Shown here piece after piece: positions 3,447 through 57,267 of a stretch of DNA of 64,000 nucleotides (the first letter of the stretch is position 1; every line of letters begins with the position of its first letter). This DNA is from Candidatus Parcubacteria bacterium (GTDB taxonomy: Bacteria > Patescibacteriota > Minisyncoccia > UBA6257 > HR35). The notes below the pieces were generated by a model. It worked only from the letters and a program-made list of their open reading frames with translations, was not told where the DNA came from and searched no databases. A program made the position numbers and the translations under genes. The DNA is taken from the NCBI GenBank assembly GCA_026004535.1, contig BPJI01000001.1, positions 324,523 through 388,522 of the forward strand, given 5' to 3'.

Positions 3447-3527
3447 TTTTTAAATGGAGTAACCGATGGGCTTTTCGGTCCTAAGGTTACCCTGGGTTAG
3501 TCGTAGTTAGCCTTAGGATCAGAGCCC

Positions 3528-3701
3528 ATGCAAAAGCCGATGAGAGGCCCAAGAAGAGGGCCAAGAAAAATGTTCAGGCCCCAAGCAGGAGAAAAATGGA
3601 TCTGCGCTAAATGTGGAGGAGAAATTGAAGAACTTCCTTTTATTCCTTCTCCTGATAGGCCAGTCTATCACCGAGAGTGTTTACCTCCAAGAAATATTTA
3701 A
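3528..3701 (+). CDS. small (57 aa) basic zinc-ribbon-like protein
   Basis: MQKPMRGPRRGPRK…ICAKCGG…YHRECL. GC-rich codons atypical for the window. Preceded by hairpin GGTCCTAAGG…CCTTAGGATC (3466-3511). Below the ORF-track length cutoff. Confidence 0.35.
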   Translation: MQKPMRGPRRGPRKMFRPQAGEKWICAKCGGEIEELPFIPSPDRPVYHRECLPPRNI

Positions 3702-9865: not shown

Positions 9866-12454
9866 ATGAACAAAAAAATACTTTTATTTACTTTAGTTTT
9901 AGGAGGTTTATTGCTCAGTTTTTTCTTTCTCTCTTTCTTTAAATCTACTTCTGCTCAAGTTTGTCTTCCTCTTAATGGTTATCTTGTTTGGCCAGGAACA
10001 TGGGAATCAGGCAGAATTCCTATGGCTTCAACACAACAATATACCTTATCAAGCTCTCCTTTTTATGTTTCTGGCAATAATGTTGGTTTAGGAACAACCA
10101 ATCCTGTCTATACTTTTCAAGTTAATGGAGATATTTCAGGAACAAGACTTTGTATTGGTAGTGATTGTCGTAATGTTTGGCCTGGTGGAGGAATTGCTGG
10201 TTCTGGTTCAGCTGGTCAAGTAGCTTTTTGGACAGGAACATCAAATATTTCAGGTGACAATGCTCTTTTTTGGGACAATATTAATAAAAGATTAGGAATT
10301 GGAACAATATCACCTCAGACATCTTTGCATGTTGCTGGTAATATCACTGCTAATACTTTTTTAGGTACAATCAATGCAGCTAATATTTCTTCAGGACAAT
10401 TTGGAGCAAATACAGGTGGAGGGAATTATAGTTTTCCTGGCAACGTCGGCATCGGGACGACGAATCCGACTGGAAAGCTACACGTCTATAATGGAAGTAC
10501 AGAATTAATGAAAGTTGTATCTGATGTGGATGTAGTTGGCATCGTGGTAGGACCAGCTATTGGTGGAAGACATTTAATAATTAATGATATTGCTCAAGCA
10601 AGATGGGCATTTGCAACTGGATATTATGATTTATCTATTCAAAATGATTATGGTGGAAGTTGGAATACTAGAATGATAATAACAGAAGACGGCAACGTCG
10701 GCATCGGGACGACGGCGCCCGGGGCGAAGTTGGATGTTGCTGGAAATATAAGCATTAGTGGTGTAGCTGATCTGGGTTTGGATGCAGGTGATGTAGCTGG
10801 CATAGTACCTTGGTATAGAGATATTTTTGCTTTCAAGACCCCAACTAACTTTGAATATTGGGATGGCACATCGTGGGTAGCATTTACTCCTACAAATCCT
10901 CAAGGAATGACTGCATGGGGAGCTGGATCTACAATCATACCGGCAGCAAATAAAGATAAGTTCAGGTTTATAATAGATACTGGTAATAGCGTTGGGTTAA
11001 GGGCAAACTTTCTTGTAGTTAGGGCTAGTGATTGTTGCCCGGGAAGTACTTATAAGGTTGAAGTTGAAGGTAGTAACGATCTAAGCACATGGAGTGGTGT
11101 TTTAACAAGTGGAAGCGGTTTTATGGGAGGCGCTCCAGACGCCCCAACAGTAATACCATTTTCAGGGGGCAACTATAGATATGCTAGGATAACCTTTACC
11201 AAACTTTCAGGTACAAGCACAAATGCATTTAGTATTTATGAATTGCATTTATTTAACAATTGGTCACCAGCTTATGCCAATCTTCCAATAAAATGGGATA
11301 CTAATGGCAACGTCGGCATCGGGACGACGGCGCCTTCTTATAAATTACATGTTCAAGGGGGAGATATTTATGCTTCCTCTTATGTAATAGGAGGGTTAGG
11401 ATTATGTATTGGGTATGATTGTCGAACTTCATGGCCACAAGGATTAACTGGAAGTGGAAGCTCTAACGCAATTGCTGTTTGGACAGGAAGTACAAGTTTG
11501 GGATCATCTATTATTTCTCAATCAGCTGGTAGTGTTAATATAGGTGGATCACTTAGTGTTTCAGGTTCTATTTCAGGTAACAGCGTTAGTGTTTCAGGTT
11601 CTGTTTCAGGTAACAGTGTTAGTGGTAATACATTATGTATTGGGTCTGATTGTCGAACTTCATGGCCACAAGGATTAACTGGGGGTGGAAGCTCTAACGC
11701 AATTGCTGTTTGGACAGGAAGTACAAGTTTGGGATCATCTATTATTTCTCAATCAGCTGGTAGTGTTAATATAGGTGGATCACTTAGTGTTTCAGGTAGT
11801 GGTATTTATACTTCAGGATCTGTTAGTGCATCGGGCGCTGTTAGTGGCAGTATGTTATGTATTGGGTCTGATTGTCGAACTTCATGGCCATCAGGATCAG
11901 GAGGATTAACTGGAAGTGGAAGCTCTACTGCAATTGCTGTTTGGACAGGAAGTACAAGTTTGGGATCATCTATTATTTCTCAATCAGCTGGTAGTGTTAA
12001 TATAGGTGGATCACTTAGTGTTTCAGGTTCTATTTCAGGTAACAGCGTTAGTGTTTCAGGTTCTGTTTCAGGTAACAGTGTTAGTGGTAATACATTATGT
12101 ATTGGGTCTGATTGTCGAACTTCATGGCCATCAGGATCAGGAGGATTAACTGGAAGTGGAAGCTCTAGTGCAATTGCTGTTTGGACAGGAAGTACAAGTT
12201 TGGGATCATCTATTATTTCTCAATCAGCTGGTAGTGTTAATATAAATGGGTCCCTTAGTGTTTCAAATTCTATTTCAGGTGGATCTATATGTATTGGATC
12301 TTCTTGCCGAAGTTCATGGCCCGTAGGATGTAGTTGGCAGGGTGTTAGTTGTAGTAATTATATTTATTTTAGTAACGGCAACGCTAGAGTGTGTATAGAG
12401 TGTCTTAATGGTGTTGTTACTAGTTTTTATATGGAGGGGGGAAGTCTGCCGTAG
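9866..12454 (+). CDS. large exported surface protein, paralogue of 6832 with an identical first about 190 aa; Ser/Gly-rich tandem repeats and a Cys-rich C-terminus
   Basis: The first about 570 nt are identical to 6832. Three copies of the GC-rich motif GGCAACGTCGGCATCGGGACGAC. Four to five tandem copies of about 234 bp (LCIGSDCRTSWP…SLSVSGSISGNSVSVSG). Ends …FYMEGGSLP*, with a frameshifted repeat of the tail downstream. Confidence 0.7.
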   Translation: MNKKILLFTLVLGGLLLSFFFLSFFKSTSAQVCLPLNGYLVWPGTWESGRIPMASTQQYTLSSSPFYVSGNNVGLGTTNPVYTFQVNGDISGTRLCIGSDCRNVWPGGGIAGSGSAGQVAFWTGTSNISGDNALFWDNINKRLGIGTISPQTSLHVAGNITANTFLGTINAANISSGQFGANTGGGNYSFPGNVGIGTTNPTGKLHVYNGSTELMKVVSDVDVVGIVVGPAIGGRHLIINDIAQARWAFATGYYDLSIQNDYGGSWNTRMIITEDGNVGIGTTAPGAKLDVAGNISISGVADLGLDAGDVAGIVPWYRDIFAFKTPTNFEYWDGTSWVAFTPTNPQGMTAWGAGSTIIPAANKDKFRFIIDTGNSVGLRANFLVVRASDCCPGSTYKVEVEGSNDLSTWSGVLTSGSGFMGGAPDAPTVIPFSGGNYRYARITFTKLSGTSTNAFSIYELHLFNNWSPAYANLPIKWDTNGNVGIGTTAPSYKLHVQGGDIYASSYVIGGLGLCIGYDCRTSWPQGLTGSGSSNAIAVWTGSTSLGSSIISQSAGSVNIGGSLSVSGSISGNSVSVSGSVSGNSVSGNTLCIGSDCRTSWPQGLTGGGSSNAIAVWTGSTSLGSSIISQSAGSVNIGGSLSVSGSGIYTSGSVSASGAVSGSMLCIGSDCRTSWPSGSGGLTGSGSSTAIAVWTGSTSLGSSIISQSAGSVNIGGSLSVSGSISGNSVSVSGSVSGNSVSGNTLCIGSDCRTSWPSGSGGLTGSGSSSAIAVWTGSTSLGSSIISQSAGSVNINGSLSVSNSISGGSICIGSSCRSSWPVGCSWQGVSCSNYIYFSNGNARVCIECLNGVVTSFYMEGGSLP
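11395..12330. repeat. about 234-bp near-identical tandem repeats (x about 4.5) inside the 9866 gene
   Basis: ttatgtattgggtctgattgtcgaacttcatggcca… recurs at about 11400, 11637, 11866, 12100 and 12290. Confidence 0.8.
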
Positions 12455-26199: not shown

Positions 26200-27819
26200 A
26201 TGAAACTTCATAATTTTTACTTCCTACTTATTACTTCTTTTTTCGTCGCTATTCTTTTTTCTTCTTACTTTATAATTTTTCAACCATCTTATGCTTGGAT
26301 AAATCCATCCCAAAATCCACCCTTAGGAGGCGGAGTATTACAAACAGACACTTCTGGTTTAAAAATTGTCACCACAACTCAGATCACTTCAGGAAATTTT
26401 ACAGTCAACACCGGCAACGTCGGCATCGGGACGGCAAACCCAAATAGTAAACTTCAAATTGATGATCAATCTGCTTCTCATTATATTGGTCGTTATGATC
26501 CAACTTGTTGTGGATCTTCACAAATCCCAGCGAATCAATTTAGAGGTTTTACAGTATTTTGGAATACAGATTTAGCAATGTTTGGGTTAAGAGATTATGG
26601 AGGCGACAGAAAAGATGTGGTAATAAATAATGAACAAGGAGGGGATAATATTAGATTTCAAATCGCAGGTTCTGATGTAATGTTTATAAGAGGAAGTGAC
26701 GGCAACGTCGGCATCGGGACGACAGCACCAGGGGCAACTGCACGTAGCTTCAGGACTAATTGAAACTGGCACTAGAAGCGTAAAACAGTAATTAAATGTA
26801 GATTCTTGCGGAACAACAAGAGTTACAAGCGTTCTAATGGAATCTGGGCGCTGATTTAGTGGTGGATCGGGATGAATGGTTTATTGGTCGCAAGATAGAG
26901 ATGGCGGAGAAGCAAGCTTAGTTTAGAATGTCGGAACGATGCCAATGATCATATAGCTCTAATGCCTCCGGCAACGTCGGCATCGGGACGACGCATCCGT
27001 GAACAAAGTTGGATGTAGTAGGCTCGATCTAGAACTTAGCAGCTAGTCTCACTCTCTCAGCTATGGTTTGATTGGACAAACTCAAAGCTACGATTTACTT
27101 CGCTCAAGCAGATTACAATCCTGAGCAGTATTACTGGGTTGGTAGCTGAGTTAAATCAAATATGGCACAATAGGGTTATCTGGTGCAAGGAAGCTCTAGT
27201 GGACTTTTGACTTATAGACAGTGGTCTTCAGGAAAGATTGGACTCGGCAGGTGGATACATCAGTTAGCGTTCATGGTTCAAGTGGATAACTTATCTGGCA
27301 TGGATATAGCCAACTACTGGTTCTTGGAGGGAATTGGGCAAGATCTCTTCGATACAGCAAATGTAGGTAAAACATCTAGTTTCTGCAGAATAGATGGAAC
27401 TGGCGATTCCTATATTATGCGGCAACGTCGGCATCGGGACGACAGCACCAGGGTATAAATTAGATGTTGCTGGAGATGTGCATGGAACAAGTTTTCCTGT
27501 TTCTTCTGATATAAGATTTAAGACTAATCTTGAGAAATTAGATAATGTTTTAGCTAAATTAGAAAATATTAATGCTTATAAATTTGATTGGAATGAGTTG
27601 TATCAGAAATTGGGAAGAAGTGATAATCGCAGACATATTGGAGTAATTGCTCAAGAAATTGAAAAGGAATTTCCTGAATTAGTGAGTGAATGGGAGCAAG
27701 ATGGAGTAAAATATAAAGCAGTTGATTATTCAAGATTGACGGTAGTTTTGCTTGAAGCAATCAAAGAACAGCAAAAACAGATTGAGGAATTAAAAAGACA
27801 GCTTTCAGTTTTCAGGTAG
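26200..27819 (+). pseudogene. degenerate tail-fibre-like surface-protein gene: intact N-terminal fragment (26200-26763), frameshifted/stop-interrupted middle, intact S74-chaperone-domain tail (27394-27819)
   Basis: N-terminal signal plus GNVGIGT motifs. Four more copies of the GGCAACGTCGGCATCGGGACG 21-mer at 26413, 26701, 26970 and 27421. Stops between 26763 and 27394. C-terminus …IGVIAQEIEKEFPELV…YKAVDYSRLTVVLLEAIKEQQKQIEELKRQL. Confidence 0.5.
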
Positions 27820-36984: not shown

Positions 36985-37047
36985 CCTCTTTTTATGTATC
37001 TGCTTAATTGTATTTCGCCTTTAAATTTTAGCACAATTTTCCACATC

Positions 37048-37075
37048 TTGACATCATATTTTTTCTATTTATAAT
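37048..37075 (+). promoter_or_regulatory. sigma70-like promoter (TTGACA-16-TATAAT) for the pilin-adhesin gene
   Basis: TTGACAtcatattttttctatTTATAAT. Identical copy at 57789-57817. Confidence 0.5.
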
Positions 37076-37081
37076 TAAATT

Positions 37082-37402
37082 ATGAATAAAAAAATGAATA
37101 AATCCTTCACTTTAGTTGAACTCTTAGTTGTCTTAGCTCTAATAGCTATCTTAGCTACTGTCTTAATTGTTGTCATTAAGCCAGCAGATATCTTTAAAAG
37201 AGGTAGAGATAGTCAAAGAACTTCAGACCTTAAAAATCTTGAAAAAATATTTGACCTTATTCTTTTTGAAACTCAAGGCACCTTTTCTGAACTTCAATAT
37301 GCTTCCTCAAATGTTGTCTATATCTCTCTTCCTGATACTTCATCAACTTGTGGTCAATGGATAAGTCAATTACCACAGCTTCCTTCAGGCTGGTCATATT
37401 GA
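37082..37402 (+). CDS. type IV pilin-like module (prepilin N-terminus), terminated by an in-frame TGA that is followed by 296 further sense codons
   Basis: MNKKMNKSFTLVELLVVLALIAILATVLIVV…; TGA at 37400-37402. Confidence 0.7.
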   Translation: MNKKMNKSFTLVELLVVLALIAILATVLIVVIKPADIFKRGRDSQRTSDLKNLEKIFDLILFETQGTFSELQYASSNVVYISLPDTSSTCGQWISQLPQLPSGWSY

Positions 37403-38290
37403 TGCTCAGCAACTCCAACAAATATTGATGGTACTGGCTGGATTCCTATTCCTTTTAATCAATTTTCAAGCATTAATCTTTCTAGACTTTTCATTGATCC
37501 AATCAATAGACCTCCATATTACTATGCATTTGTTGCTGGAGGAAGTTATGCTCTCTATGCTCAATTAGAAAATCCTCAGTCTCAAGCCTCAAAAACAGAC
37601 AATGATAATTATCCTCATCTATTTTCAGTAGGAACAAATAAAAGACTCATTGATCAAGCTCAAGGACTTGTAGGGTATTGGTCTTTTGATGAAGGAAGTG
37701 GAAATATTGCTAATGATTATTCAGGAAACAATAATAATGGAACACTCTATAATGGTCCTCAATGGGTTGATGGTAAAGTAGGTAAAGCTTTAAGTTTTGA
37801 TGGAGTGGATGATTATGTGAATGCATGGACTGGCCCCGGCTCGCAAATTACCGATAGAGTTACTGTGAGCGCGTGGGCTCGTAATGTGGGAGCTCCTTCA
37901 GCGTTTAATACGATTATTGCTAATTATGCTTCGAATGCGGGATGGGCAATACGCACCGCAGAATCGGGGATTAGTTACCTGCATTTCTTAGGACGATCCG
38001 GCGCAGGCGAAGTGCGAGTTATCATTGCTTCCGAGGCGGAAACATTTAATGGTGCATGGCACCATGTCGCATTTACGGTGTCTGGAGGCGTTGCGAGAAC
38101 ATATCTTGACGGTGGTTTTGTTGCTTCCGCGTCTGGTGTTGTGAATTTGCAACCAGCGACGACTACTTTGATTGGGAAGGGTCATATAGGAGGACTTGGC
38201 TTCTGGAACGGTCTTATCGACGAAGTTCGTATCTACAATCGCGCTTTATCAGATCAAGAAATAAAGGTTCTTTATGAAGCAACTAAATAA
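37403..38290 (+). other. in-frame, stop-free continuation of the pilin ORF after the TGA: LamG/ConA-like lectin (jelly-roll) domain
   Basis: Same frame as 37082. No start codon for about 400 nt. …NGAWHHVAFTVSGGVARTYLDGGFVASAS…GLIDEVRIYNRALSDQEI… is a LamG-type signature. Confidence 0.5.
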
Positions 38291-38488
38291 CCACGGATAT
38301 ACACGGATAATAAATAACCACGGATTTACACGGATAACATAAAGGATAGATACGGATACTAATTAATGTTCGTATAAGTTTGTGTATAGTTCGCATAAAG
38401 GGTACGTATAAAACACTATAGCGTCTGAAACGTCCTTTCTGATTTTAGTGACTTTAATGATATATGATTAATAAAAGAATATGTTTTG

Positions 38489-38560
38489 CGCCCCTAACCG
38501 GATTCGAACCGGTATTTCCAGCCTGAGAAGCTGGTGTCCTAACCATTAGACGATAGGGGC
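38489..38560 (-). tRNA. tRNA-Glu (anticodon CTC)
   Basis: Reverse complement GCCCCTATCGTCTAATGGTTAGGACACCAGCTTCTCAGGCTGGAAATACCGGTTCGAATCCGGTTAGGGGCG. Confidence 0.8.
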
Positions 38561-38569
38561 AATAACTTC

Positions 38570-38800
38570 GCACACACGCCTACGAGCACCGGCACTCAAC
38601 TTGCTCCAGCGGCAAGTTGGTGCCTCGGTTCTCGGCTCGAAAACTTTGCCATCTGCTAAAGCAGACTGGCAAAGACCGAGCTTTTCGAGCCTCCGAAACG
38701 TGCTCTACGGCGTGGTGCTCGGCAAAATTTTTCGCCGAACTCGCTCGCCAACAAACATGGCATGGCGTGGTGCGAGGTAATATCGGGACATACGATGTCA
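38570..38800. ncRNA. GC-rich (about 58%) highly structured island; candidate unidentified structured RNA
   Basis: Nested perfect helices GGCACTCAACTTGC/GCAAGTTGGTGCC and GGCTCGAAAA…TTTGCCA…CTGCTAAAGCAG…TGGCAAA…TTTTCGAGCC. Three mutually overlapping ORFs on both strands argue against coding. Adjacent to tRNA-Glu. Confidence 0.3.
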
Positions 38801-38906
38801 CGATATTTTTTCTTAATATTTAGACACGCACGTCTTAAATTATACAATAAAACTCACAATTCGTTAACTCGTTAATTAATTAAATTCGTTAATTAATTAA
38901 ATTATA

Positions 38907-39527
38907 TTATAAATAAATTTTTCTGATTTCTTTGATTAAAAAATTTTTTATTGTACTTAAATCAACTCTTTTTGAAGGCATAAAATCTATAGGTTCTTCT
39001 TCTATTTCTGAAAAATCAAGGAGTTCTTTAAAAATAAAGTTAATATCAACATCAGAAATTTTTTTATTAAATAAATTAACAATTTGTTTTAATTTTACTT
39101 TTTTTAAACCATAATAAAGATCAACATAATCTTTAAACTCAATTCTTTCAGTAACTACCAAAAGTTTCATACAGAGAATATCTTCTAAACTAGCAATGTT
39201 TAAAAATTTTGTTTTAATTAATGGTTTAATTAAAGGGTACTTGTAAAATAAAAAATTAACATTAACTTCATTATCGAAAACCAAAAATAAAGAACTTTTA
39301 TCAGATAATGATTTAATAACTTTATGGTTTTTAGCTAAAGATAATATCTTTTCAAATAAATTTCTTTCATCAAATTTTTTTTCAGAAAAAAAATCAAAAT
39401 CATAGCTTTTTCGATGGCCTAAAATTAAAGAAAGTCCGGTACCGCCAGCTAGATAAAAATCTTTCTTTAAAAAAGAAAATAAAGGCAATAATTTCTTCCT
39501 TTTTTTATCTAAAACTTTTTCAAACAT
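38907..39527 (-). CDS. Pol-beta-superfamily nucleotidyltransferase (AbiEii/MNT-like)
   Basis: …FYLAGGTGLSLILGHRKSYDFDFF… fits hG[GS]-x(9-13)-DhD. Confidence 0.55.
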   Translation of the reverse strand: MFEKVLDKKRKKLLPLFSFLKKDFYLAGGTGLSLILGHRKSYDFDFFSEKKFDERNLFEKILSLAKNHKVIKSLSDKSSLFLVFDNEVNVNFLFYKYPLIKPLIKTKFLNIASLEDILCMKLLVVTERIEFKDYVDLYYGLKKVKLKQIVNLFNKKISDVDINFIFKELLDFSEIEEEPIDFMPSKRVDLSTIKNFLIKEIRKIYL

Positions 39528-39813
39528 TAAAAATGACCTTCCAAAATTGATAAGACTTCCTCTGCCAATTTTTAAAATTATTATTTTTTAAAAAATTTTT
39601 AATTTCTTTTTTTGGGTAAACTGAAAAAAGCCAGTCAGTTGCTTTTTTAGTGCCGAAATTTAAAATATTAAAAATTATCTTTTCTTTATTTTTATTTAAA
39701 TCAAGTTTGTTTAAATTATAGTACCAAAGGAATGGTTTTAAAAAATCTGGAAATTTTTGTTTTCTCATTATATAATGATTATACAATGAAATTAAAAATA
39801 TTTTTCTTTTCAA
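39520..39813 (-). CDS. hypothetical small protein overlapping the nucleotidyltransferase by 8 nt (possible cognate partner)
   Basis: 97-aa ORF; the true start may be the internal Met near 39768. No motif recognised. Confidence 0.35.
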   Translation of the reverse strand: MKRKIFLISLYNHYIMRKQKFPDFLKPFLWYYNLNKLDLNKNKEKIIFNILNFGTKKATDWLFSVYPKKEIKNFLKNNNFKNWQRKSYQFWKVIFNV

Positions 39814-40919
39814 TAAGTTTGATTCTTTTTTTAGGATTAGTTAAATTTTTTGTTTCCTTGCCGAGAACATATGTGTTTAGTTATCAAAATTTAGGATCAA
39901 AACTAAGTATAGGATTTTCAAAATCTAATTTAGTTCAACCGAAAATTTGCGAAAAAAGAGTTTGGGAAATAAATTTATCCAAGAATCAAATCTATTTTTT
40001 TGAAAATTGTAAATTAAAAACAATAATTTCTATTGCTTATCAATCGCCCTCTGGAGTATGGTATCAAACGCCAACTGGTTATTTTCGAGTTGGGATTAAA
40101 AAAGAAAAACATATTTCTTCTTTGTTACCTGTCTATATGAATTATGCTGTTCAAATGTATGAGGATTTTTTTATTCATGAAATTCCTTATTATTTAGATG
40201 GTCAAAGAGTTGATAGTGATTTTACTGGTGGCTGTATCAGGCTAGAGTCAGAACAGGCTAAAAAATTTTTCGAGATGGCTCGAGCTGGCGATTTAATTAT
40301 TTCTTATTTAGATCTGGATAATATTAAAGTTAAAGATAATTTTGTTTTTCCTGTTAATAAAAATGAGTTTTATTTAAGACAAAGATTTAATAGTCCTTTA
40401 AGAACTGCTTGGTATTCTTTAAAAGATAGAAGAATTGATTATATTCAGCATGCTGGGATTGATTTAGCACCCAATCCCGAAGCTAAAGATTTAAATGTTT
40501 ATAATATTTATGATGGTAAAATTGTTAAAATAGTTAAAAATGGGGAAAATGATCATGGTTTAGGCAATACTGTGATTATTGAACACCCTGATTTAAAAAT
40601 TTATTCTCTTTATGCTCATCTTGAATCAATAAATTCCGAGTTAAAAGAAGATAAGTATGTTCAAAAAGGAAAAATAATTGGTAAAGTTGGGGCAACTGCT
40701 TATGGCTGCAATTGGTGGCACATTGGCGAAGACGGTTGTGATAAAAAAGGGAAATTAGATATTCATCTACATTTTGAGATTAAAACAAAACCTGTTTTAG
40801 AGAGCCCAATTGGAGCAAGGTGTTTAATTAATGGCGAATATAAAACTTGTTATGGTTATGTTCCTGATAATCCAGAAAAATTTGGTTATTTAGACCCAAT
40901 TAAGTTTTTGAGTGAATAA
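39786..40919 (+). CDS. L,D-transpeptidase (YkuD) / M23 peptidase fusion protein, exported
   Basis: N-terminal TM. …DFTGGCIRLESEQAKKFF… (LDT catalytic Cys). …HAGIDLAPN…GNTVIIEHPD…YSLYAHL…DIHLHFEI (M23 HxxxD / HxH). Confidence 0.7.
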   Translation: MKLKIFFFSISLILFLGLVKFFVSLPRTYVFSYQNLGSKLSIGFSKSNLVQPKICEKRVWEINLSKNQIYFFENCKLKTIISIAYQSPSGVWYQTPTGYFRVGIKKEKHISSLLPVYMNYAVQMYEDFFIHEIPYYLDGQRVDSDFTGGCIRLESEQAKKFFEMARAGDLIISYLDLDNIKVKDNFVFPVNKNEFYLRQRFNSPLRTAWYSLKDRRIDYIQHAGIDLAPNPEAKDLNVYNIYDGKIVKIVKNGENDHGLGNTVIIEHPDLKIYSLYAHLESINSELKEDKYVQKGKIIGKVGATAYGCNWWHIGEDGCDKKGKLDIHLHFEIKTKPVLESPIGARCLINGEYKTCYGYVPDNPEKFGYLDPIKFLSE

Positions 40920-44865: not shown

Positions 44866-45744
44866 ATGTATTTATTAGGAGATGTAGGAGGTACAAAAAC
44901 AAGATTGGCAATTATTGATAAAATCTATATAAATTCAAAGCAAGTTTATAGACATCTTAAACAAAATACAAAAATTTTTAACACTCCTCAAAAATATGAA
45001 GATTTTTTAGAATTAATTAAAAATTATATTCTGCGTAGTTCAGCGTCAGTTCTGCGTAGTTCTGCATTAAAAATTTGTTTTGGATTTGCTGGTCTTTTCG
45101 ATCAAAAGAAAGAAAAATTAATTTACTCTCCAAATTTAAAAGATTATGTTGGCAGAAATTTAAAAAAAGATTTAGAAAAGATTTTACATCCGCGTTTATC
45201 CGTGGTACTCGAGAATGATGCTGCTTTAGCTGGTTTAGGAGAAGCATATTATGGAGCAGGAAAGAATTTTAATGTTTTTGGTTATATTACTTTAAGCACA
45301 GGAGTTGGAGGAGCTAAAATTGTTAATAAAAAAATTGATGATAATGTTTTTGGTTTTGAGCCAGGACATTTATTTATTTTAATTCAAAGTAAGACATACG
45401 ATGTCTTACCATTTGAAGTTGAAGAGATTGTTGGTGGTAAAAGTTTAGAAAGAATTTTTAATAAAAAACCGGAAGAAATAAAAGATAAAAAATTATGGGA
45501 TGATCTGAGTAAAATTTTAGCAATATTTTTAGTGAATGTTTCAATTTTTTGGTCTGTTGATAAAATTATTTTAGGTGGTGGATTAACGAAAAGTTTAAAT
45601 TTTAAAAAATTAAATTTTTATATTAATGAATTTAATCCCTTACCAGTTAAAATTAAAGTGATAAAATCAAAATTAGAAGAATTTTCAGGATTATACGGAG
45701 GATTGAGTTATTTAAGAAATACGGGGCATAGCGCAATTGGTTAG
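44866..45744 (+). CDS. ROK-family sugar kinase (glucokinase-like)
   Basis: MYLLGDVGGTKTRLAII…, …LENDAALAGLGEAYYGAG…. In-frame CGCAGAACT-type and palindromic repeat insertions. The last 8 codons run into a tRNA-derived repeat. Confidence 0.65.
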   Translation: MYLLGDVGGTKTRLAIIDKIYINSKQVYRHLKQNTKIFNTPQKYEDFLELIKNYILRSSASVLRSSALKICFGFAGLFDQKKEKLIYSPNLKDYVGRNLKKDLEKILHPRLSVVLENDAALAGLGEAYYGAGKNFNVFGYITLSTGVGGAKIVNKKIDDNVFGFEPGHLFILIQSKTYDVLPFEVEEIVGGKSLERIFNKKPEEIKDKKLWDDLSKILAIFLVNVSIFWSVDKIILGGGLTKSLNFKKLNFYINEFNPLPVKIKVIKSKLEEFSGLYGGLSYLRNTGHSAIG

Positions 45745-45768
45745 CGCACTGGCTTCGGGTGCCAGAGG
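45723..45768. repeat. partial duplicate (5' acceptor, D and anticodon arms) of tRNA-Pro directly upstream of the intact gene
   Basis: GGGGCATAGCGCAATTGGTTAGCGCACTGGCTTCGGGTGCCAGAGGT has no T-arm or 3' acceptor. Confidence 0.45.
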
Positions 45769-45774
45769 TATTTT

Positions 45775-45846
45775 CGGGATGTAGCGCAGTGGTAGCGCAC
45801 CAGTTTCGGGTACTGGAGGTCGCGGGTTCAAATCCCGCCATCCCGA
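45775..45846 (+). tRNA. tRNA-Pro (anticodon CGG)
   Basis: CGGGATGTAGCGCAGTGGTAGCGCACCAGTTTCGGGTACTGGAGGTCGCGGGTTCAAATCCCGCCATCCCGA. Confidence 0.8.
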
Positions 45847-46021
45847 AATAAACAATAATTAAAACGAAAAATAGGGATGCAATTATTTGCAGCCCTCCTT
45901 TGAACCCAGCAGACAATTAGTAAGAAGCATTAACGAAAACGCAAAAACAAAGTTAAAACAAGGGGTTTATATATTAGCTTTTTCGAGATCCCTGTCTACT
46001 TGCAGTCAGTCACTATCTCAA

Positions 46022-48905: not shown

Positions 48906-50660
48906 AAATTCCCTTAAAAAATAAACAAAAGCAATTTTATACGCCACGGATTCACGCCGATTTTTATAATCCACGGATTTACGCGGATTTAGAACGGATT
49001 TACGTGGATTATTATCATTAGGATTTAGGCGGATGTTGTTTCCGGGTAGTATTCTTTCTTTTTCATAAAAGCTATGAATTTTTTTAGCTAAATCAATTAA
49101 ATAATCAGTGAGAAGATGAGGTCTTTTTTCTTTGTAAATTAAATAAATTAAATCTTGTAATTGATGAACCTTTCTTAAAATTATTTTAGCTGAGTCAATG
49201 TCTTTAATTGATAAGAAAACTTTTTGCGCATCAATTATTCGTGTTAATTCGCTTTTTATTCGTGTTAATTCGCGTCCTTTCTCCAAAATACTATTTAACC
49301 TTGCACAAGCATATTGAATATACCAATAAGGATTTTCCTCTGATTCTTTTTTGGCTAAATCTAAATCAAATTCAATCATAGCCTCAGGAGATTTTTGTAA
49401 AAAGAAAAATCTAACAACTCCTGAGTCAATTTCGTCAATTAAGTCTTGTAAAGTGATAAAAACTCCTCTTCTTTTTGACATTCTTAAATATTCTTGTCCT
49501 TTTTTAAGATGAACAAATTGATAAACTATCGGTAAAAATTGGTAATCTTTAATGCCAAAAATTTTTAAAGCGGCTCTCAATCTGCGAGTGTGATCAAGAT
49601 GGTCACTAGCAACAATTAAAATTTCTATCTTATTTTTCTTAAGAAAAAATTTATGGTAATAGTGTAAAATATCAGAGAAAAAATAAGTTGGTTCACCATT
49701 TTGTTTAATTAAAACTTCATCTTTATCTTCACCCAATTTTGTTAAAAGCAAAAACAAAGCTCCATCTCTATTTTCAATTAATTTTTTTCTTTCAAAAATT
49801 CTTAGAACTCTTTTATCTAAATTTTTTTTATAGAGATCCGTTTCAAAGAAGTACCAATCAAAATTAGTGCCAAAATTTTTTAAGGCTTGTTTAATGAGAT
49901 TCTTTAAAATATAATCAGCTACTTTTTTGCCAATTTTTTCTAATATTACAGACTCATGCTGATTTAGAATTGTTTTTATTTCTTCACTCAACTTTTCAGC
50001 AATCTCTTTTAGATATTCACCTTGATAAAAATTGCTTTCCCAATCAAGATAACCTAAATGAGCCAAGACTGTTTTGGCTAAAATCTCAATTTGATTTCCG
50101 CGATCATTAACGTAATATTCCCTAGTAACTCTAAATCCAGCTAATTTTAAAATGTTTGCCAAAGTATCTCCTAAAACAGCACCTCGAGCATTTCCTAAAG
50201 TTAAAGGCCCAGTAGGATTAGCGGAGACATAATCAATATTTAATTTTTGTTTTCGACCATAATTTTGTTGGAAAAATTTTTCTTTATTTTTATAAATTGC
50301 TCTAAATGTTTTTAAAAGCTGATAATCAGAAAGCCAAAAATTTAAGTAATTATTGACAATCTCGATTTTTTTGAAAACCAAGGATTTTCGCGGATTTAAA
50401 ACGGATTTATGCGGGTTATTATCAGCGTTGATCCTTTTTGAAATCTGTGTAAATCTGTGTTTAATTTTATCAATAATTATTTTTTCTTTTTCCGGAGCAA
50501 ATTGTTTTAAAAGAAAAATTAGATTGGTTGAATAATCACCTAATTTTTCATCATCAATTAAAAATACTTTTAATTTTTGTAAAATTTTCTCTGCTTTTTC
50601 TTTATCGATTTCTTTTCTAATTAAATTTTTCAATTTTTGCTCTAAAAGATAAAGATTCAT
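48855..50660 (-). CDS. argS: arginyl-tRNA synthetase
   Basis: …YVSANPTGPLTLGNARGAVLGD…. In-frame CACGGAT-repeat insertions near both ends (48930-49040 and 50380-50420). Confidence 0.85.
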   Translation of the reverse strand: MNLYLLEQKLKNLIRKEIDKEKAEKILQKLKVFLIDDEKLGDYSTNLIFLLKQFAPEKEKIIIDKIKHRFTQISKRINADNNPHKSVLNPRKSLVFKKIEIVNNYLNFWLSDYQLLKTFRAIYKNKEKFFQQNYGRKQKLNIDYVSANPTGPLTLGNARGAVLGDTLANILKLAGFRVTREYYVNDRGNQIEILAKTVLAHLGYLDWESNFYQGEYLKEIAEKLSEEIKTILNQHESVILEKIGKKVADYILKNLIKQALKNFGTNFDWYFFETDLYKKNLDKRVLRIFERKKLIENRDGALFLLLTKLGEDKDEVLIKQNGEPTYFFSDILHYYHKFFLKKNKIEILIVASDHLDHTRRLRAALKIFGIKDYQFLPIVYQFVHLKKGQEYLRMSKRRGVFITLQDLIDEIDSGVVRFFFLQKSPEAMIEFDLDLAKKESEENPYWYIQYACARLNSILEKGRELTRIKSELTRIIDAQKVFLSIKDIDSAKIILRKVHQLQDLIYLIYKEKRPHLLTDYLIDLAKKIHSFYEKERILPGNNIRLNPNDNNPRKSVLNPRKSVDYKNRRESVAYKIAFVYFLREFLGFALSLINIKPIKKL

Positions 50661-53600
50661 TGAAACACTCTTTTAAAAGTGTCATTTAATATTTTTTGAT
50701 AATCTTTCTTACCTTCAGCAACTAAATCCATTGCCTCTTCTAATTTTATAGTAAATTCTTCAGCAACCAAATCTTTGTGTTTTTTAATCAAATAATTATA
50801 AATCTTTTCTCCTAAAGAAACGGGAATTAAATATCCCGAACGATTGAGAACATATTTTCTATCAATTAAAGTTTGAATAATTGTTGAATAAGTTGATGGT
50901 CTACCTAAGCCTCTTTTTTTCATTTCATCAATAAGCTCACCCTGGGTATAATGATATTCTTTTGGTACTTTTTTAATTTTTAAATTCTCAACTTTAAATT
51001 TATCTTCAATTAAATTAAAAATTTTTATATTTTTAAAGAATTGAAGATGATTGCCTTCAGTAATTTCAACAAAAGCCTCTTGTGTTTGCTTATATAAAAC
51101 AAATTCATGGTTACTTGTTTTAAGGATTATTTCAATTTCTGTTTTTTTGCCTTTGCTTGGTTTCATCTGAGAAGCGATAAATCTATTAAAGATCAATCCG
51201 TAAAGCTGTAAGTGTTTTTTAGTCAAATTTTTTTGTTCTAAAATCATACTTTCAATAAGATCTTGGACATCTAACGGTTTTGTCGGTCTTATTCCTTCAT
51301 GAGTACCAATTTCTCCCCAAGCTCGTTTATAAAACAAATCTTTTAAATTCTTTCTTTCTAAATATTCATAGGCAACATTACGACCGAATTCAGAAACGAA
51401 AACAGAATCAGTTCGATGATAAGTAATTAATCCTTGTTCAAAAAGGTCCTGAGCTAATCTCATTGTTATTGGAGCTTCAAATCTAAAAAAACTATTAGCA
51501 TCTTTTAAAAGATTACTTGTATCATAAGGAGGTAGGGGATTAATTGTTTCTTCTTGGGTTCTGTTAAATTTTATTTCAATTTCTAATTCTTGGTTTTTAA
51601 AGGCTGTTTTTATTTCTTTAATAATGTCTTCATTTTCTAAGTAAAAATAAAGAGGAGTAAGTTTTTGGGAATCATTGGGTTGATTTATGCTAACATTAAC
51701 TAAATAATGCTTATTTTTAATTCTTTTTTCTTTTTCTAAAATCCAACCTAAGACTGGAGTCTGAACTCTGCCGGCAGAAAGATTGAGATTTTTAAAATGT
51801 TGTTGAATTTCTTCACTTAATTTAAAACCAATCCAACGATCAGAAATTCTTCTTAAAAGTTGAGCCTTGACTAAATTAACATCAACATCTCTTGGTTCTT
51901 TTATTTTTTTAATGAATTCAGTTTTGGTAATTTCATGAAGCTCTATTCGTTTGATGTTTTGATTATAGGGATAAAGATAGGCAAATAAATCAAAAGCTAT
52001 TTTTTCGCCTTCGGTATCAGGATCAGTGGCTAAATAAATTTTATCAACCTCAAAAGCAATTTTTTGTAAATTTTTTATTAATTCTTGTTTACTAAGGAAA
52101 TTTTGAGAATTACAAACAGGACATTCATTTTCGTTTAAACTTAAGTGGCGCTTACAATTCTGACAAATTTTTAAGGGTTGAAAAACAGGCACAAATTCCC
52201 CTTTTTCTTTTTTGACACCATAATAACCATCTTGATGAGTTAAATCAGTAAAGTGCCCTAAAGTAGCGCAAATATTTAAATGTAGATTTCCTAAGGAAAC
52301 CTCATAAAAAATAATATTAGCCTTAATTCTCCTAGCTGGCTTGCCAAAAAAGTTAGCGATCGTTTTTGCTTTTGTCGGCGATTCAACTAAAACCAAAGCA
52401 GTTTCAATTGGATCTTTAAGAGTAAACTCTTCGCCAGTTAAGACCCTTTCAACAATTTTGCGATCTTTATCAATTTCTTCTAAAATTTTTGTTAAATTAA
52501 TTTCACTAGCATTTTTAAAATTTGCTTCATAGCCTAAGATTTTCAATTTATCTTTTAAATGATTTAAAACTTTTTCATTTTCAGCTAAAATTAAAGCTAA
52601 TCCTTTGGTAAGACCCAGAGGAAAAAGTCGCGAAGTTCTACCTGATGCTTGAATATAGCCACGAGGATCAGAAACAACTAAATAATAATTTAAATTATTA
52701 CCCGGATCATCACTAGATATATTACCCGGATGATTACCGGATAGATGGTTGTTTTCCTTGGAATTTATATTAGTTTTTACTCCATTATTGTTCGCATTGG
52801 TTCGCGTATAGTTCGCATCAGTCTGCGTCATTAGAGTTATTCTTGGATGTTTTTTAATTTTTTCAATAATTTCTTCATCTTTTAAAAATTCTTCAAAAGT
52901 TCTTTTTATTGGTTCGATTTTTTCCTTTAAATTTTTATCAGCCAGAATTGCTTCTTCTTTGAGAAAAGATATTTTTTTAAGAAAATTCAAATTTCTTTCA
53001 ATTAACGATTTTTCATCGACAGTTTCTCTTAATGTTAGGCCTAAAAGAAAAAGATGTAAAGGAGAATAAGATACTTTTAATGGAATCTTAAATTTTGGCA
53101 CACCCAAAAACAAGGCATATCTTACTTTTTGGGGTAAATCAATTCCTCGAGTTAAGGGATTTCTAATATTACTAAAGCCGACAACAACTTGAATTTCATT
53201 TTCTAAAAAAGCTTTTTGATTTTTGGTATTAAATTTTTCATACGAAACAGCATTTATGCTATTTTCTTTTAAAAAATCAATATAATTATTTAAATCTTCT
53301 TTACGAAAATCATCATTTAAAAAAACAAAACCACCAGGACCTAATTTTTTTAGCCAATAGATTGATCTTTTGATTAACGCGATTTTTTGCGAACTATCGG
53401 AAGGAGCGGAAACGAACGCAGAACTATCGGAATGAGCGGAAGAATTGTTTCCGTTTGTTCCGTTTATAATTTCATACACTTCTTCAATGTTTCTTAAATA
53501 AGTTGTTGCTGAGCCAATTTCAAATCCTAAAAGTTCTCGAAAAAGGGCAATTTTTTTTGTTTTTGGAGTTAAAGTGGCTGAAGCAGCAATAATAAGACCC

Positions 53601-54355
53601 TTCTCATCTTTGTTAATATCCATAACTTCAATTGCAGCATAATCTTCTCTATTTTTGGCTTTTCTTTTTTTGTCAATAATTTGGATTGCTCTTTGGATTT
53701 CTTCATCTTTGAATTTAATTAATTTCAAAACTTTATCAATATTTTTTGGTTGTCTGATTAAAGAATCGGCGTCATCAACAAAAACCAAATCAAAATTTTT
53801 AGGAATAATGTCAAAATTTTTATGAAGAAAGTTGGCCGTAGTAAGCAAAATATCAAAATCTTCATTTTTTAATAATTCTTTATCTTCTTTTTCTTTAATG
53901 ATTAAAATTTTTTTATCAGATTTTATATTTTTTAATTTTTTCTCAATCTCACGCAATAAAATTTTTGAAGGGACTAAATAATAAACTTTGCCTGGAAGAA
54001 AATGAGAAATAATGTTACCAAAAGTTGTTTTACCAATTCCGGTAGGAGCAATTATGGAAAAAGATTCTCTTTTTAAGACTCTTTTTGCCCAATAAAGCTG
54101 AAGTCGAAGTGGTTGATGCCCAGTATTTTCTTTAAAAAAATTTATGAATTCTTTTAATTTCTGTAAAACTATGTAATCTTCATTAAAATTCTCCAAGTCC
54201 TCTTTAAGATCGAGATTCTCAGTTATCTTAAATAGGGTTTTTTTAAATCTTTCATAATCTTTATTACACAAGCCATAATTATAGATTTCCTCAAAATTAG
54301 CATCATTTCTATCTATCGGACAAATTTCTAAATAGCGAACGTTTAATTTTTCCAT
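50657..54355 (-). CDS. rgy: reverse gyrase (N-terminal helicase-like domain fused to a type IA topoisomerase)
   Basis: …LQLYWAKRVLKRESFSIIAPTGIGKTTFG…, …DLVFVDDAD…, …ALVLVESPTKAKTIANFF… (TOPRIM), Zn finger CQNCKRH…CPVC. 1232 aa. In-frame repeat insertions at about 52690-52830 and 53390-53460. Confidence 0.8.
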   Translation of the reverse strand: MEKLNVRYLEICPIDRNDANFEEIYNYGLCNKDYERFKKTLFKITENLDLKEDLENFNEDYIVLQKLKEFINFFKENTGHQPLRLQLYWAKRVLKRESFSIIAPTGIGKTTFGNIISHFLPGKVYYLVPSKILLREIEKKLKNIKSDKKILIIKEKEDKELLKNEDFDILLTTANFLHKNFDIIPKNFDLVFVDDADSLIRQPKNIDKVLKLIKFKDEEIQRAIQIIDKKRKAKNREDYAAIEVMDINKDEKGLIIAASATLTPKTKKIALFRELLGFEIGSATTYLRNIEEVYEIINGTNGNNSSAHSDSSAFVSAPSDSSQKIALIKRSIYWLKKLGPGGFVFLNDDFRKEDLNNYIDFLKENSINAVSYEKFNTKNQKAFLENEIQVVVGFSNIRNPLTRGIDLPQKVRYALFLGVPKFKIPLKVSYSPLHLFLLGLTLRETVDEKSLIERNLNFLKKISFLKEEAILADKNLKEKIEPIKRTFEEFLKDEEIIEKIKKHPRITLMTQTDANYTRTNANNNGVKTNINSKENNHLSGNHPGNISSDDPGNNLNYYLVVSDPRGYIQASGRTSRLFPLGLTKGLALILAENEKVLNHLKDKLKILGYEANFKNASEINLTKILEEIDKDRKIVERVLTGEEFTLKDPIETALVLVESPTKAKTIANFFGKPARRIKANIIFYEVSLGNLHLNICATLGHFTDLTHQDGYYGVKKEKGEFVPVFQPLKICQNCKRHLSLNENECPVCNSQNFLSKQELIKNLQKIAFEVDKIYLATDPDTEGEKIAFDLFAYLYPYNQNIKRIELHEITKTEFIKKIKEPRDVDVNLVKAQLLRRISDRWIGFKLSEEIQQHFKNLNLSAGRVQTPVLGWILEKEKRIKNKHYLVNVSINQPNDSQKLTPLYFYLENEDIIKEIKTAFKNQELEIEIKFNRTQEETINPLPPYDTSNLLKDANSFFRFEAPITMRLAQDLFEQGLITYHRTDSVFVSEFGRNVAYEYLERKNLKDLFYKRAWGEIGTHEGIRPTKPLDVQDLIESMILEQKNLTKKHLQLYGLIFNRFIASQMKPSKGKKTEIEIILKTSNHEFVLYKQTQEAFVEITEGNHLQFFKNIKIFNLIEDKFKVENLKIKKVPKEYHYTQGELIDEMKKRGLGRPSTYSTIIQTLIDRKYVLNRSGYLIPVSLGEKIYNYLIKKHKDLVAEEFTIKLEEAMDLVAEGKKDYQKILNDTFKRVFQ

Positions 54356-55232: not shown

Positions 55233-56579
55233 TTAATTGATTCTTTTCAAAATAATTCCTCCGCCTAAAACGATGTCATCTTTATAAAAAACTATTGATT
55301 GACCTGGGGCAACAAATTTTTGAGGTTCGAGAAATTCAATGAACGCAGACCCTCGCAGACTGTGCGCAGACTTTTGCAGACTATACTCAGATTCACGCAG
55401 AATAAGTTTTGCTTTAACTAAGGGTTGTCTATGGCGAAAACGAACATCAATAATTATAGAATTACCCGGATGATTACCTGATAGATTACCCGGATGATTA
55501 CCTGATAGATTACCCGGATGATTACCGGATGAATAGTTATTGTTTATATAGTCTGCGTAAGTCTGCGTGTAGTCTGCGTGGGTCTTCGTTTTATCTGTAT
55601 TAGTCTGAGGAAACAAAATTTCTTTTTCTAAGATATTAATTTCAGTAATTTCAATTTTTTGGCTATAAAGTAAAGGATGACCTTCTTTAGCAACAACAAT
55701 TAAATTTTCTTCAGGAATTTTTTGAGCTACATAATATGGGCCATCACCAACTTTAATATTAAGTCCATGTCTTTGGCCTTCAGTGAAATAAAAATAACCA
55801 GGATGAGTGCCTAGGATCCTTCCTTCAGTATCAATAATTTTACCTTCTTTTGGTTTTAAATATTGACTTAAAAATTCTCTTAATTTTACTTGGCCAACAA
55901 AGCAAATTCCCATACTTTCCTTCTTCTCAGCAACTGGTAAATTATATTTTTTAGCAATTTCTCTAACTTCAGTCTTTAGCAAATCGCCAACAGGGAAAAT
56001 TATTTTTGAGAACTTTTCTTTTTCAATTGACCAAAGAAAATAAGTTTGATCTTTATCCTGATCTTTTGCTTTTAAAAGATGAATTTCAGATGTATTACCC
56101 TGATGTCCACCGGATATATTACCCAGATAATTACCTGATGAATTATTTCTTTTATTAGATTCTATATTAAGATTGTCTTTCTTATTGTTCGCATCAGTTC
56201 GCGTTAAGTTCGCATCGATTTGCGTTCGAGCATAATGTCCTGAAGCAACCATCTCATAACCTAAATTTAAAGCTTTATCAAAAAATACGCCAAATTTTAT
56301 AAACTGATTGCAGTAGACATCTGGATTAGGAGTTAAGCCCTTTTCATAAGTTCGAATCATATAGTTTATAACTTTTTCTTCAAATTCATCGGTTAAATCA
56401 AAAACATAAAAAGGAATATTTAAAATTTCAGCTACTCGACGAGCATCTTCAGCATCTTGAGGATTACAAAAATCAAAACAATGTAAATGAACACCAACGA
56501 GATTATAACCTTTTTCTTTTAAAAGCAAAGCTGAAACTGAAGAATCAACTCCTCCAGAAAGAAGAACAGCTATTTTCAT
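55233..56579 (-). CDS. mnmA: tRNA-specific 2-thiouridylase MnmA
   Basis: MKIAVLLSGGVDSSVSALLL… PP-loop. Two long in-frame insertions of CCGGAT plus GTCTGCGT repeat DNA (55340-55580, 56090-56230). Confidence 0.85.
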   Translation of the reverse strand: MKIAVLLSGGVDSSVSALLLKEKGYNLVGVHLHCFDFCNPQDAEDARRVAEILNIPFYVFDLTDEFEEKVINYMIRTYEKGLTPNPDVYCNQFIKFGVFFDKALNLGYEMVASGHYARTQIDANLTRTDANNKKDNLNIESNKRNNSSGNYLGNISGGHQGNTSEIHLLKAKDQDKDQTYFLWSIEKEKFSKIIFPVGDLLKTEVREIAKKYNLPVAEKKESMGICFVGQVKLREFLSQYLKPKEGKIIDTEGRILGTHPGYFYFTEGQRHGLNIKVGDGPYYVAQKIPEENLIVVAKEGHPLLYSQKIEITEINILEKEILFPQTNTDKTKTHADYTQTYADYINNNYSSGNHPGNLSGNHPGNLSGNHPGNSIIIDVRFRHRQPLVKAKLILRESEYSLQKSAHSLRGSAFIEFLEPQKFVAPGQSIVFYKDDIVLGGGIILKRIN

Positions 56580-57016
56580 TGACCAAGAGTAGTTTTAATT
56601 CTTTTTAAAATCTGATCAAGGCTTTCTGACTTGCTGAAAAAATCTAAAGCACCAAATTTTTTGATTATTTTATTATATTGGTCTCCTATTTCTTCTTTTA
56701 AGTCAAATTTATTTGTCATAATTAAAACTTTAATATTTTTACCATTAGGATGCGTTTTTAACCAAAAGAGAGTATCAACACCATTCATTATTGGCATAAC
56801 AACGTCTAAAAGAATTAAATTAGGTTTATATTGATCTAATAAGCTAATTCCTTCTTTGCCGTTTTCTGCCTCAATTATTTCATAACCCGCAGATTGGAGC
56901 TTTATTCTTAAGATCTCTCGATAATTTTTGTCATCGTCAATAATTAAAATTAATTTTTTATTATTTTGTTGTTGAATTGAATTGTTCATTCTAAGTCTTT
57001 TATATTTTGTGGTCAC
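56576..57016 (-). CDS. response regulator receiver-domain protein (stand-alone)
   Basis: …LILIIDDDKNYREILRIKL…LILLDVVMPIMNGVDT…. Confidence 0.75.
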   Translation of the reverse strand: MTTKYKRLRMNNSIQQQNNKKLILIIDDDKNYREILRIKLQSAGYEIIEAENGKEGISLLDQYKPNLILLDVVMPIMNGVDTLFWLKTHPNGKNIKVLIMTNKFDLKEEIGDQYNKIIKKFGALDFFSKSESLDQILKRIKTTLGQ

Positions 57017-57194
57017 GAAGTGACTTGTCCTGCACCACAGCCTTTGTCACGGTGCCTACCTGCTGGCAGGCAGACAGGTCGCCCTGGACCGAACTATGTT
57101 TTGGTTCAGGGCTAACCCCTAATCCCTAACCCCATAGTAGATTAAATCTCAATACGGGTTATATCTTCCAATTTTTATATATAAAATTTAATAT

Positions 57195-57267
57195 TGGACC
57201 CGAGGGGACTCGAACCCCTGACCTCTGCAGTGCAAATGCAGTGCTCTACCAACTGAGCTACGGGCCC
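57195..57267 (-). tRNA. tRNA-Ala (anticodon TGC)
   Basis: Reverse complement GGGCCCGTAGCTCAGTTGGTAGAGCACTGCATTTGCACTGCAGAGGTCAGGGGTTCGAGTCCCCTCGGGTCCA; G3:U70 present. Confidence 0.85.

Follow-up and report, generated by a model that had tools for sequence, protein, structure and literature searches.

The question raised by this locus is what a compact, GC-rich and strongly folded island next to a tRNA gene represents in an otherwise AT-rich genome. The window, that is, the whole 64-kb stretch of Candidatus Parcubacteria DNA analysed here, has a G+C content of 31.7%, against 55.5% at 38565-38800, 57% in the core of the island (38559-38725) and 17-25% in the adjoining 200-nt windows. The original prediction had put the island at about 58%; the high G+C stands, but not the exact figure. 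The + strand of 38561-38810 folds at -119.7 kcal/mol, compared with -72.8 +/- 4.3 kcal/mol for dinucleotide shuffles (z = -11.0; 0 of 200 shuffles as good), the - strand at -122.6 kcal/mol (z = -9.2 against shuffles), and the 164-nt core folded alone at -84.1 kcal/mol (z = -10.0); the long nested helix noted earlier was located at 38634-38691. Overlapping ORFs on both strands are likewise present, although four in number (59-73 aa) and not three, and none of the four is present in a collection of 15 billion proteins. A strongly structured non-coding island is thus real, with its raised G+C, a fold z of about -10 and no credible protein, and the checks of G+C, helix, fold, ORFs and tRNA together confirm the observation with slightly corrected numbers. 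Moreover, a Logan contig (run DRR290133) is 100% identical to window positions 38236-40193, and so the stretch carrying the island is not a one-off assembly product. A Candidatus Parcubacteria MAG (locus tags KatS3mg096) contains the ORFs on both sides of the island, as GIW67501.1 and GIW67502.1.

The adjoining tRNA gene is tRNA-Glu (anticodon CUC; gene CTC; 38488-38560, - strand; ARAGORN, Rfam tRNA 66.6 bits). It has its 5' end toward the island and is separated from the terminal stem described below by about 5-10 nt. In a consensus scan, one promoter-like site, TTAACG-17-TATAAT at 38839-38867 on the - strand (10 of 12 matches), was the sole candidate able to drive tRNA-Glu; it is a candidate only, the count of promoter-like sites in this region being no higher than in shuffles. 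The same scan gave no promoter-like site on the + strand upstream of the island. Two sets of short repeats lie nearby. Those at 38858-38901, between the AbiEii gene and the island, are 17-nt direct repeats (AATTCGTTAA(C/T)T...TTAATTAATTA) that overlap the - strand promoter-like site. Those at 38284-38337, between a LamG ORF and tRNA-Glu, are two tandem 27-nt repeats (TAAATAACCACGGAT(A/T)TACACGGATAA), each able to fold on the - strand into a weak hairpin resembling a terminator.

Several other spots in the window are GC-rich as well. A second non-coding island, at 57005-57140, is located between tRNA-Ala (57195-57267, - strand) and the start of a 146-aa receiver-domain ORF (56576-57016, - strand); its - strand carries telomere-like G-runs (GGGGTTAGGGATTAGGGGTTAG), its fold has z = -2.5, no Rfam family matched it at E<=10, and the syntenic contig L089 of a relative lacks anything corresponding to 56580-57195. 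At 3455-3545, a long GC-rich hairpin (fold z = -3.0; no Rfam match at gathering thresholds) lies just 3' of a promoter-like sequence, TTGTGATATAAT, and upstream of a small ORF. Other G+C spikes are accounted for by a repeated GC-rich motif, GACGGCAACGTCGGCATCGGGACGAC, at 10690-10725, 26700-26735 and 26965-27000 in long AT-rich stretches, where the motif is assumed to be coding.

The first possibility to consider was a known RNA. A scan of the whole window with Rfam 15 at gathering thresholds returned the 16S rRNA and nine tRNAs only, leaving the island unmatched, and a permissive cmscan (E<=10) of 38300-39000 added nothing beyond tRNA and tRNA-derived noise. No tmRNA was found by ARAGORN. The failure to match RNase P, tmRNA, SRP or 6S RNA by eye, as originally reported, was therefore repeated by Rfam and ARAGORN. 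A renewed inspection by eye for RNase P, SRP and 6S RNA was equally negative, the P4-type motifs (GGAAAGUC/ACAGAA) and the SRP motifs (GNRA/AGCA) being absent from both strands. It has been reported that diverged RNase P RNAs of CPR bacteria can score below the Rfam noise cut-offs (PMC8172020); nevertheless, a diverged RNase P RNA is excluded here, because homologous copies of the island occur inside ORFs and, in one case, two of them side by side.

These homologues came from several rounds of searching. Translations of five of the six frames of the island were concatenated into a single query, the sixth frame, the 73-aa ORF, being searched separately; this ORF as a lone query had no protein homologue. 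The concatenated query recovered two proteins in which TRLRAPALNLLQ(R/Q)QVG...LR(N/H)VL appears mid-way in otherwise ordinary enzymes. A profile built from three copies added two more proteins, bringing the element-containing ORFs to P0003-P0006, and a HMMER search of 1.84 billion representatives contributed one further small ORF, P0007. In total, at least five assemblies or metagenomes supplied seven distinct copies, which occupy six contexts, and the contigs that carry them are all AT-rich (26-36% G+C) and Parcubacteria-like. Relative to the window, the copies show 65-93% nucleotide identity, with one diverged copy at about 57%; by blastn the DNA copies are 76-91.5% identical over 137-165 nt. 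Since the copies were located via protein databases, the sample favours those that are ORF-embedded and free of stop codons.

The places in which the copies sit are unrelated. In contig L083 the element lies in frame within miaA; MiaA sequence flanks it on either side, and relative to solved MiaA structures the protein sequence is longer by about 55 residues. In L084 it lies in frame within a membrane-protein gene (238 aa), and three independent samples, namely an NCBI MAG, a JGI metagenome and an SRA assembly, carry the identical insertion; two strain variants (L090 and L091) have an identical element and thus add no covariation. The L082 copy is part of one ORF linking a truncated MGMT-like domain to Sua5. 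L085 has two copies side by side and inverted (2-163, + strand; 166-333, - strand) upstream of fmt, one of them being the diverged copy at about 57%, which suggests that insertion recurred at a single spot or that there are two subfamilies. In L086-L089 the element forms a 67-aa ORF between ROK and tmk that overlaps both neighbours, including, in L089, the ROK stop codon and the tmk start codon. Three of the seven copies are within continuous host ORFs and a fourth is an ORF of its own overlapping both neighbours. Four copies are sense-oriented within genes or operons; an orientation antisense to the neighbours is seen for the window copy and for one of the two in L085. The idea of a housekeeping ncRNA does not agree with copies inside miaA and a membrane-protein ORF, nor with two adjacent ones in L085.

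On this basis we propose that the island is one copy of a dispersed family of GC-rich, Y-shaped foldback repeats that is apparently undescribed. The repeat has a core of about 165 nt and reaches about 220 nt with a 3' extension. The copies share a common three-armed fold consisting of a long closing stem with a UAC x UAC internal loop, a hairpin A with the conserved loop UCCAG(C/U)(G/A), i.e. UCCAGYR, and a longer, sequence-variable hairpin B that retains a 3' bulge, ACCRAGC. The covariation analysis supports a fold conserved with compensatory changes in the homologues. RNAalifold on a MAFFT alignment of five copies gave 51 pairs, 9 of them with compensatory double changes. In the six-copy comparison, standard pairs fill 96.4% of pair cells, compared with 32-46% when the partners are slid, and double changes occur at 23 of the 51 pairs, a result equalled by 0 of 500 shuffles; these six-copy counts come from an alignment (A7) fitted to the structure model, so that they lean toward the structure and are somewhat inflated. 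The independent MAFFT/RNAalifold result agrees with them in direction. The covariance model (R1), built from the five-copy result, scores the window copy at 196 bits and the other copies at 144-193 bits, and it assigns the diverged seventh copy, in L085, 83.5 bits against 29 bits from a sequence-only profile. The covarying internal helices suggest that it is the fold as a whole, and not the terminal repeats alone, that is under selection. As for the strand, one-sided changes comprise 14 G.U versus 5 A.C on the + strand, which is sense for the host genes, with 5 of the 14 G.U at one loop-closing pair; this may be taken as a weak preference for the + strand, but 14 versus 5 is too weak to decide, and a strand assignment from these changes was dropped.

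If the fold is what is conserved, one may ask what the open reading frame through it signifies. The frame reading RLRAPALNLLQRQVGAS is stop-free inside the element in 6 of 6 main-family copies, the two non-genic copies included, and the other five frames mostly contain stops. It is in this RLRAPALNLLQ frame that the miaA, membrane-protein and MGMT-like/Sua5 ORFs are predicted to read the element. Nevertheless, the copies carry no codon-position signal of protein selection: variable columns are evenly spread over the three codon positions (28/55, 27/53 and 31/54), and the peptide across hairpin B is wholly different between copies. The constraint is therefore on the nucleic acid and not on the protein, with read-through retained. 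With one frame lacking stops, an interrupted gene would still be read through.

The window copy itself is the best paired among the copies found, with 50 of 51 model pairs Watson-Crick. Its core spans 38562-38725 on the + strand (nhmmer profile E = 4e-54). The closing stem is formed by 38570-38580/38709-38718 and 38584-38589/38700-38705, with the UAC x UAC loop in between; hairpin A occupies 38591-38624, with its conserved loop TCCAGCG at 38605-38611; and hairpin B occupies 38625-38696, with the 3' bulge ACCGAGC. The 3' extension (38719-38763, + strand) consists of a small hairpin, TCGGC...GCCGA at 38719-38738 (-6.8 kcal/mol), followed by AACTCGCTC. It is common to the window and L084 copies and partly to the L082 copy (alignment A3), and tblastx similarity extends to window position 38747. 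As read by eye in A3, L084 retains the small stem via two double changes (TTAG...CTAA). Beyond the extension the 3' closing strand is repeated as GGCGTGGTGCGAGGTAAT (38764-38782, + strand), and this repeat can pair with the 5' end of the element (38565-38580) and provides the outermost helix in the minimum-free-energy fold of 38561-38810; the window accordingly has two occurrences of the motif GGCGTGGTGC, one at 38709 and one at 38764. This second strand belongs to the window copy only, being absent from L084, and is probably a local partial duplication. It runs into a hairpin at 38779-38812 (+ strand), AATATCGGGACAT ACG ATGTCACGATATT and then TTTTTCTT (-10.2 kcal/mol, z = -4.3); with its T-run this hairpin resembles a terminator of the + strand, and a G.A mismatch in the stem kept the consensus scan from calling it.

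Whether the element belongs with tRNA-Glu can be judged from relatives. A 30-nt stretch of the window tRNA-Glu, used as query, found two genomes and four metagenome contigs. The island is missing upstream of tRNA-Glu(CUC) at all seven of the relatives' loci compared (L075, L076, L078-L081 and L089), several of which have the gene order tRNA-Glu, tRNA-Lys, NlpC/P60. The adjacency is therefore specific to this genome, and the link to the tRNA drawn in the original prediction falls away, the homologues being in unrelated contexts. The integrative element suggested at the same time is not borne out either, since the element is at the 5' side of the tRNA and no integrase is nearby.

The syntenic contig L089 matches window 36785-57345 at 70-83% nucleotide identity (PyrG, 73% aa). 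Its element lies in the ROK-tmk spacer, where there is no tRNA; the same spot in the window holds tRNA-Pro(CGG) and a partial tRNA-Pro-like copy, and no element. This 5' partial copy (45721-45768) is directly upstream of the complete tRNA-Pro(CGG) gene (45774-45847). An element remnant in the window's ROK-tmk spacer was also sought and rejected, local alignment scores being within the shuffle range. Conversely, the tRNA-Glu(CTC) gene of L089 is elsewhere, upstream of tRNA-Lys on the same strand, with no element upstream of it. In L089, rsmI is directly followed by ykuD/M23 (end 155, next start 172), and in the window the two are separated by a lineage-specific rearranged block of 2.75 kb (36985-39731). 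The block contains a pilin/LamG gene, the inverted tRNA-Glu, the element and an AbiEii/DUF6922 pair. Since the window and L089 differ at both element sites, the element has been gained, lost or moved since the lineages split.

Among the neighbours in the block, the AbiEii nucleotidyltransferase (38907-39527, - strand; Pfam PF08843, E = 8e-13; GIW67502.1) and the DUF6922 protein (39520-39813, - strand; Pfam PF21956, E = 1e-10) make up a toxin-antitoxin-like pair (38907-39813, - strand). The LamG-domain ORF (37805-38290, + strand; GC-rich stretch at 37791-38210) has 49.5% G+C in this 31.7% G+C genome; upstream of it and in another frame is an ORF with a pilin-type N terminus (37082-37402), and the two may be a frameshifted or foreign gene. 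Two kinds of retroelement were considered and set aside. A retron was rejected, as there is no reverse transcriptase among the neighbours, which are tRNA-Glu, LamG/pilin, AbiEii and DUF6922, nor in the gene tables of L084 and L089; a diversity-generating retroelement template for the GC-rich LamG gene was rejected, as the island and the gene share no repeat.

The unrelated loci, the in-frame insertions into ORFs and the different locus in L089 thus indicate a dispersed, probably mobile palindromic element, and it is reasonably probable, in our judgement, that it is a non-autonomous one, selfish in its behaviour, like the Rickettsia palindromic elements. Such an element would land in spacers and, when sense-oriented, inside genes. 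Some enzyme might copy or move it by recognising the conserved loops and the folded single strand, whether DNA or RNA, and the high G+C could keep the fold stable at the growth temperature of the host. The window copy would have no function of its own; read antisense, it would simply make up a roughly 270-nt 5' leader of pre-tRNA-Glu, starting from the promoter-like site at 38867-38839, which RNase P would presumably remove when tRNA-Glu matures. With regard to temperature, the window encodes a reverse gyrase of 1232 aa (50657-54355, - strand; TIGR01054, 1082 bits; ortholog at L089 14208-17672), and the host is therefore of the thermophile type. Thermophily would explain a GC-rich fold in an AT-rich genome. 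A published account of Katase hot-spring sediment gives 52 degC and does not name the MAG of this window.

Looking for the usual marks of mobility yielded less. The terminal stem supplies inverted termini, but no target-site duplication, direct repeat or common target flanking the seven copies could be defined in alignments A3 and A7 as read by eye, and the gene tables of the neighbours list no transposase, integrase or reverse transcriptase encoded next to the copies. Distant-mode blastn against phage and plasmid collections gave chance matches of 27-30 nt only in phages and nothing in plasmids. In viral contigs, 74 matches to GGCGTGGTGC...GGCGTGGTGC were discarded, all being unrelated coding sequence of GC-rich phages, and three element-specific patterns had no match. 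It also speaks against a mobile element that the copy number looks low in the stretches sampled (one in the 64-kb window, one in the 20.7 kb of L084, one in the 20 kb of L089 and two in L085), whereas classical MITEs are multi-copy. Furthermore, the conserved loops, the 23 covarying pairs and the modest excess of G.U over A.C would also fit a functional RNA.

Such an RNA could be free-standing, namely the product of a gene that happens to be mobile or duplicated in thermophilic Parcubacteria, where it would represent a new ncRNA family, the copies in ORFs being secondary. We regard this as unlikely. Strong covariation, conservation of the unpaired motifs UCCAGYR, UAC x UAC and ACCRAGC, the surplus of G.U over A.C on the + strand and the terminator-like hairpin directly 3' of the window copy on that strand all argue for it, as does the absence of any matching Rfam family. 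Nevertheless, it accounts poorly for the copies embedded in continuous host ORFs (three of seven) or overlapping both neighbours as an ORF (the fourth), for the want of a + strand promoter-like site upstream in the window and for the same locus in relatives that lack the element. Nor would a free-standing RNA need the open frame that is kept. There is likewise only a small chance that the element is a new structured RNA module, intron-like, self-processing or a tRNA-surrogate processing signal, that is spreading in thermophilic Parcubacteria with a preference for tRNA-related transcripts. The preferred transcripts would then be pre-tRNA-Glu and those at the tRNA-Pro slot, miaA, sua5/tsaC and fmt, and the open frame would be a safeguard for unprocessed messages.

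A cis-acting RNA module in the carrier transcripts, acting as a heat-stable processing, stability or translation-coupling signal and possibly linked to tRNA, is in our view distinctly unlikely. It would suit the four copies lying sense within genes or operons, and the L089 element, which sits exactly at the window's co-oriented tRNA-Pro slot between ROK and tmk with an ORF overlapping codons of both neighbours. The neighbours are, moreover, often tRNA-related (tRNA-Glu, the tRNA-Pro site, miaA, sua5 and fmt); however, this link was drawn post hoc in genomes rich in translation genes. The host genes are mutually unrelated, the same loci in relatives lack the element, and two copies, in the window and in L085, run antisense to their neighbours.

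Quite improbable is a small intervening sequence that is removed post-transcription or bypassed by the ribosome, so that the host proteins would be without the extra 55 residues. The interruption of a conserved gene, miaA, internally by a highly structured element would be natural for such a sequence. Known group I introns, however, are larger than about 160 nt, and the element, at about 160 nt, falls below that size. A self-splicing intron was rejected, there being no match to Intron_gpI, Intron_gpII or any ribozyme in Rfam at E<=10, and intergenic and antisense copies exist. Keeping the host frame, and that same frame stop-free, would also be needless in a sequence that is removed. It is in favour of this reading that Patescibacteria are known for many group I introns (PMC13011429, PMC8172020). 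Finally, a structured 5' leader or regulator of tRNA-Glu, or an attachment remnant of something integrated there, is largely refuted despite the few nucleotides between element and tRNA 5' end, the promoter-like site beyond the element on the tRNA strand and the lineage-specific 2.75 kb around it, for the tRNA-Glu(CUC) genes of seven relatives have no such leader, in five other contig contexts the element lies nowhere near a tRNA, no integrase is nearby and the element is on the 5' side of the tRNA, integrases usually using the 3' side.

Returning to the proposed palindromic mobile element, we compared it with known systems. The Rickettsia palindromic elements (RPE), reportedly described by Ogata et al. 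in 2000, are close in kind: they are also palindromic repeats of small size (about 100-150 bp) for which stable folds are predicted, they lie in spacers and in frame in unrelated housekeeping genes, always in one frame with the host ORF continuing, and they have no transposase of their own. No sequence relationship between the two is expected. The present element differs in that its host is a thermophile-type Parcubacterium and not an alphaproteobacterium, that it is GC-rich in an AT-rich genome, that it is Y-shaped with conserved loops and not a simple hairpin, and that its copy number appears low, at one per 20-64 kb sampled against dozens of RPE in R. conorii. Insertions in yeast mitochondria offer a second parallel, in which GC clusters of about 30-50 nt and byps of 27-55 nt, the latter reportedly described by Lang et al. 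in 2014 and said to be skipped by the ribosome, are GC-rich palindromes that spread in AT-rich genomes, coding regions included; the element, at about 165 nt, is longer, bacterial and keeps an open frame. A third concerns the high-GC ncRNA islands in AT-rich hyperthermophiles, which Klein, Misulovin and Eddy are said to have described in 2002. There, too, a G+C spike marks a structured nucleic acid, but each of those islands is an RNA gene at a single locus, conserved in position, in contrast to an element that is dispersed and found inside ORFs, and neither Hgc nor any other Rfam family matched the element at E<=10.

For palindromic repeats inside genes, RPE and other in-frame MITEs provide published precedent (PMC10969869). 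The MITEs, such as Coxiella QMITE, ERIC and Correia/NEMIS, are non-autonomous and occasionally fused in frame with host ORFs (PMC10969869, PMC5896051). Our element resembles them in being non-autonomous, in a size range of about 100-300 bp and in terminal inverted repeats that fold back; it differs in that the target-site duplications and matching transposase that define MITEs were not found near its copies. In the literature searched, no MITE-like or in-frame palindromic repeats are reported for Parcubacteria.

The conserved loops and covarying helices imply a partner enzyme that recognises the fold. In practical terms, caution is called for in gene annotation, as the element yields fused or extended ORF calls (P0003 and P0006), and a hunt for ncRNAs by G+C spikes in AT-rich thermophiles can catch elements of this kind. 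More broadly, the genomes of Parcubacteria are tiny and streamlined; in them a hopping element would open a new route of change for genome and proteins alike, and would add about 55 residues to enzymes such as MiaA.
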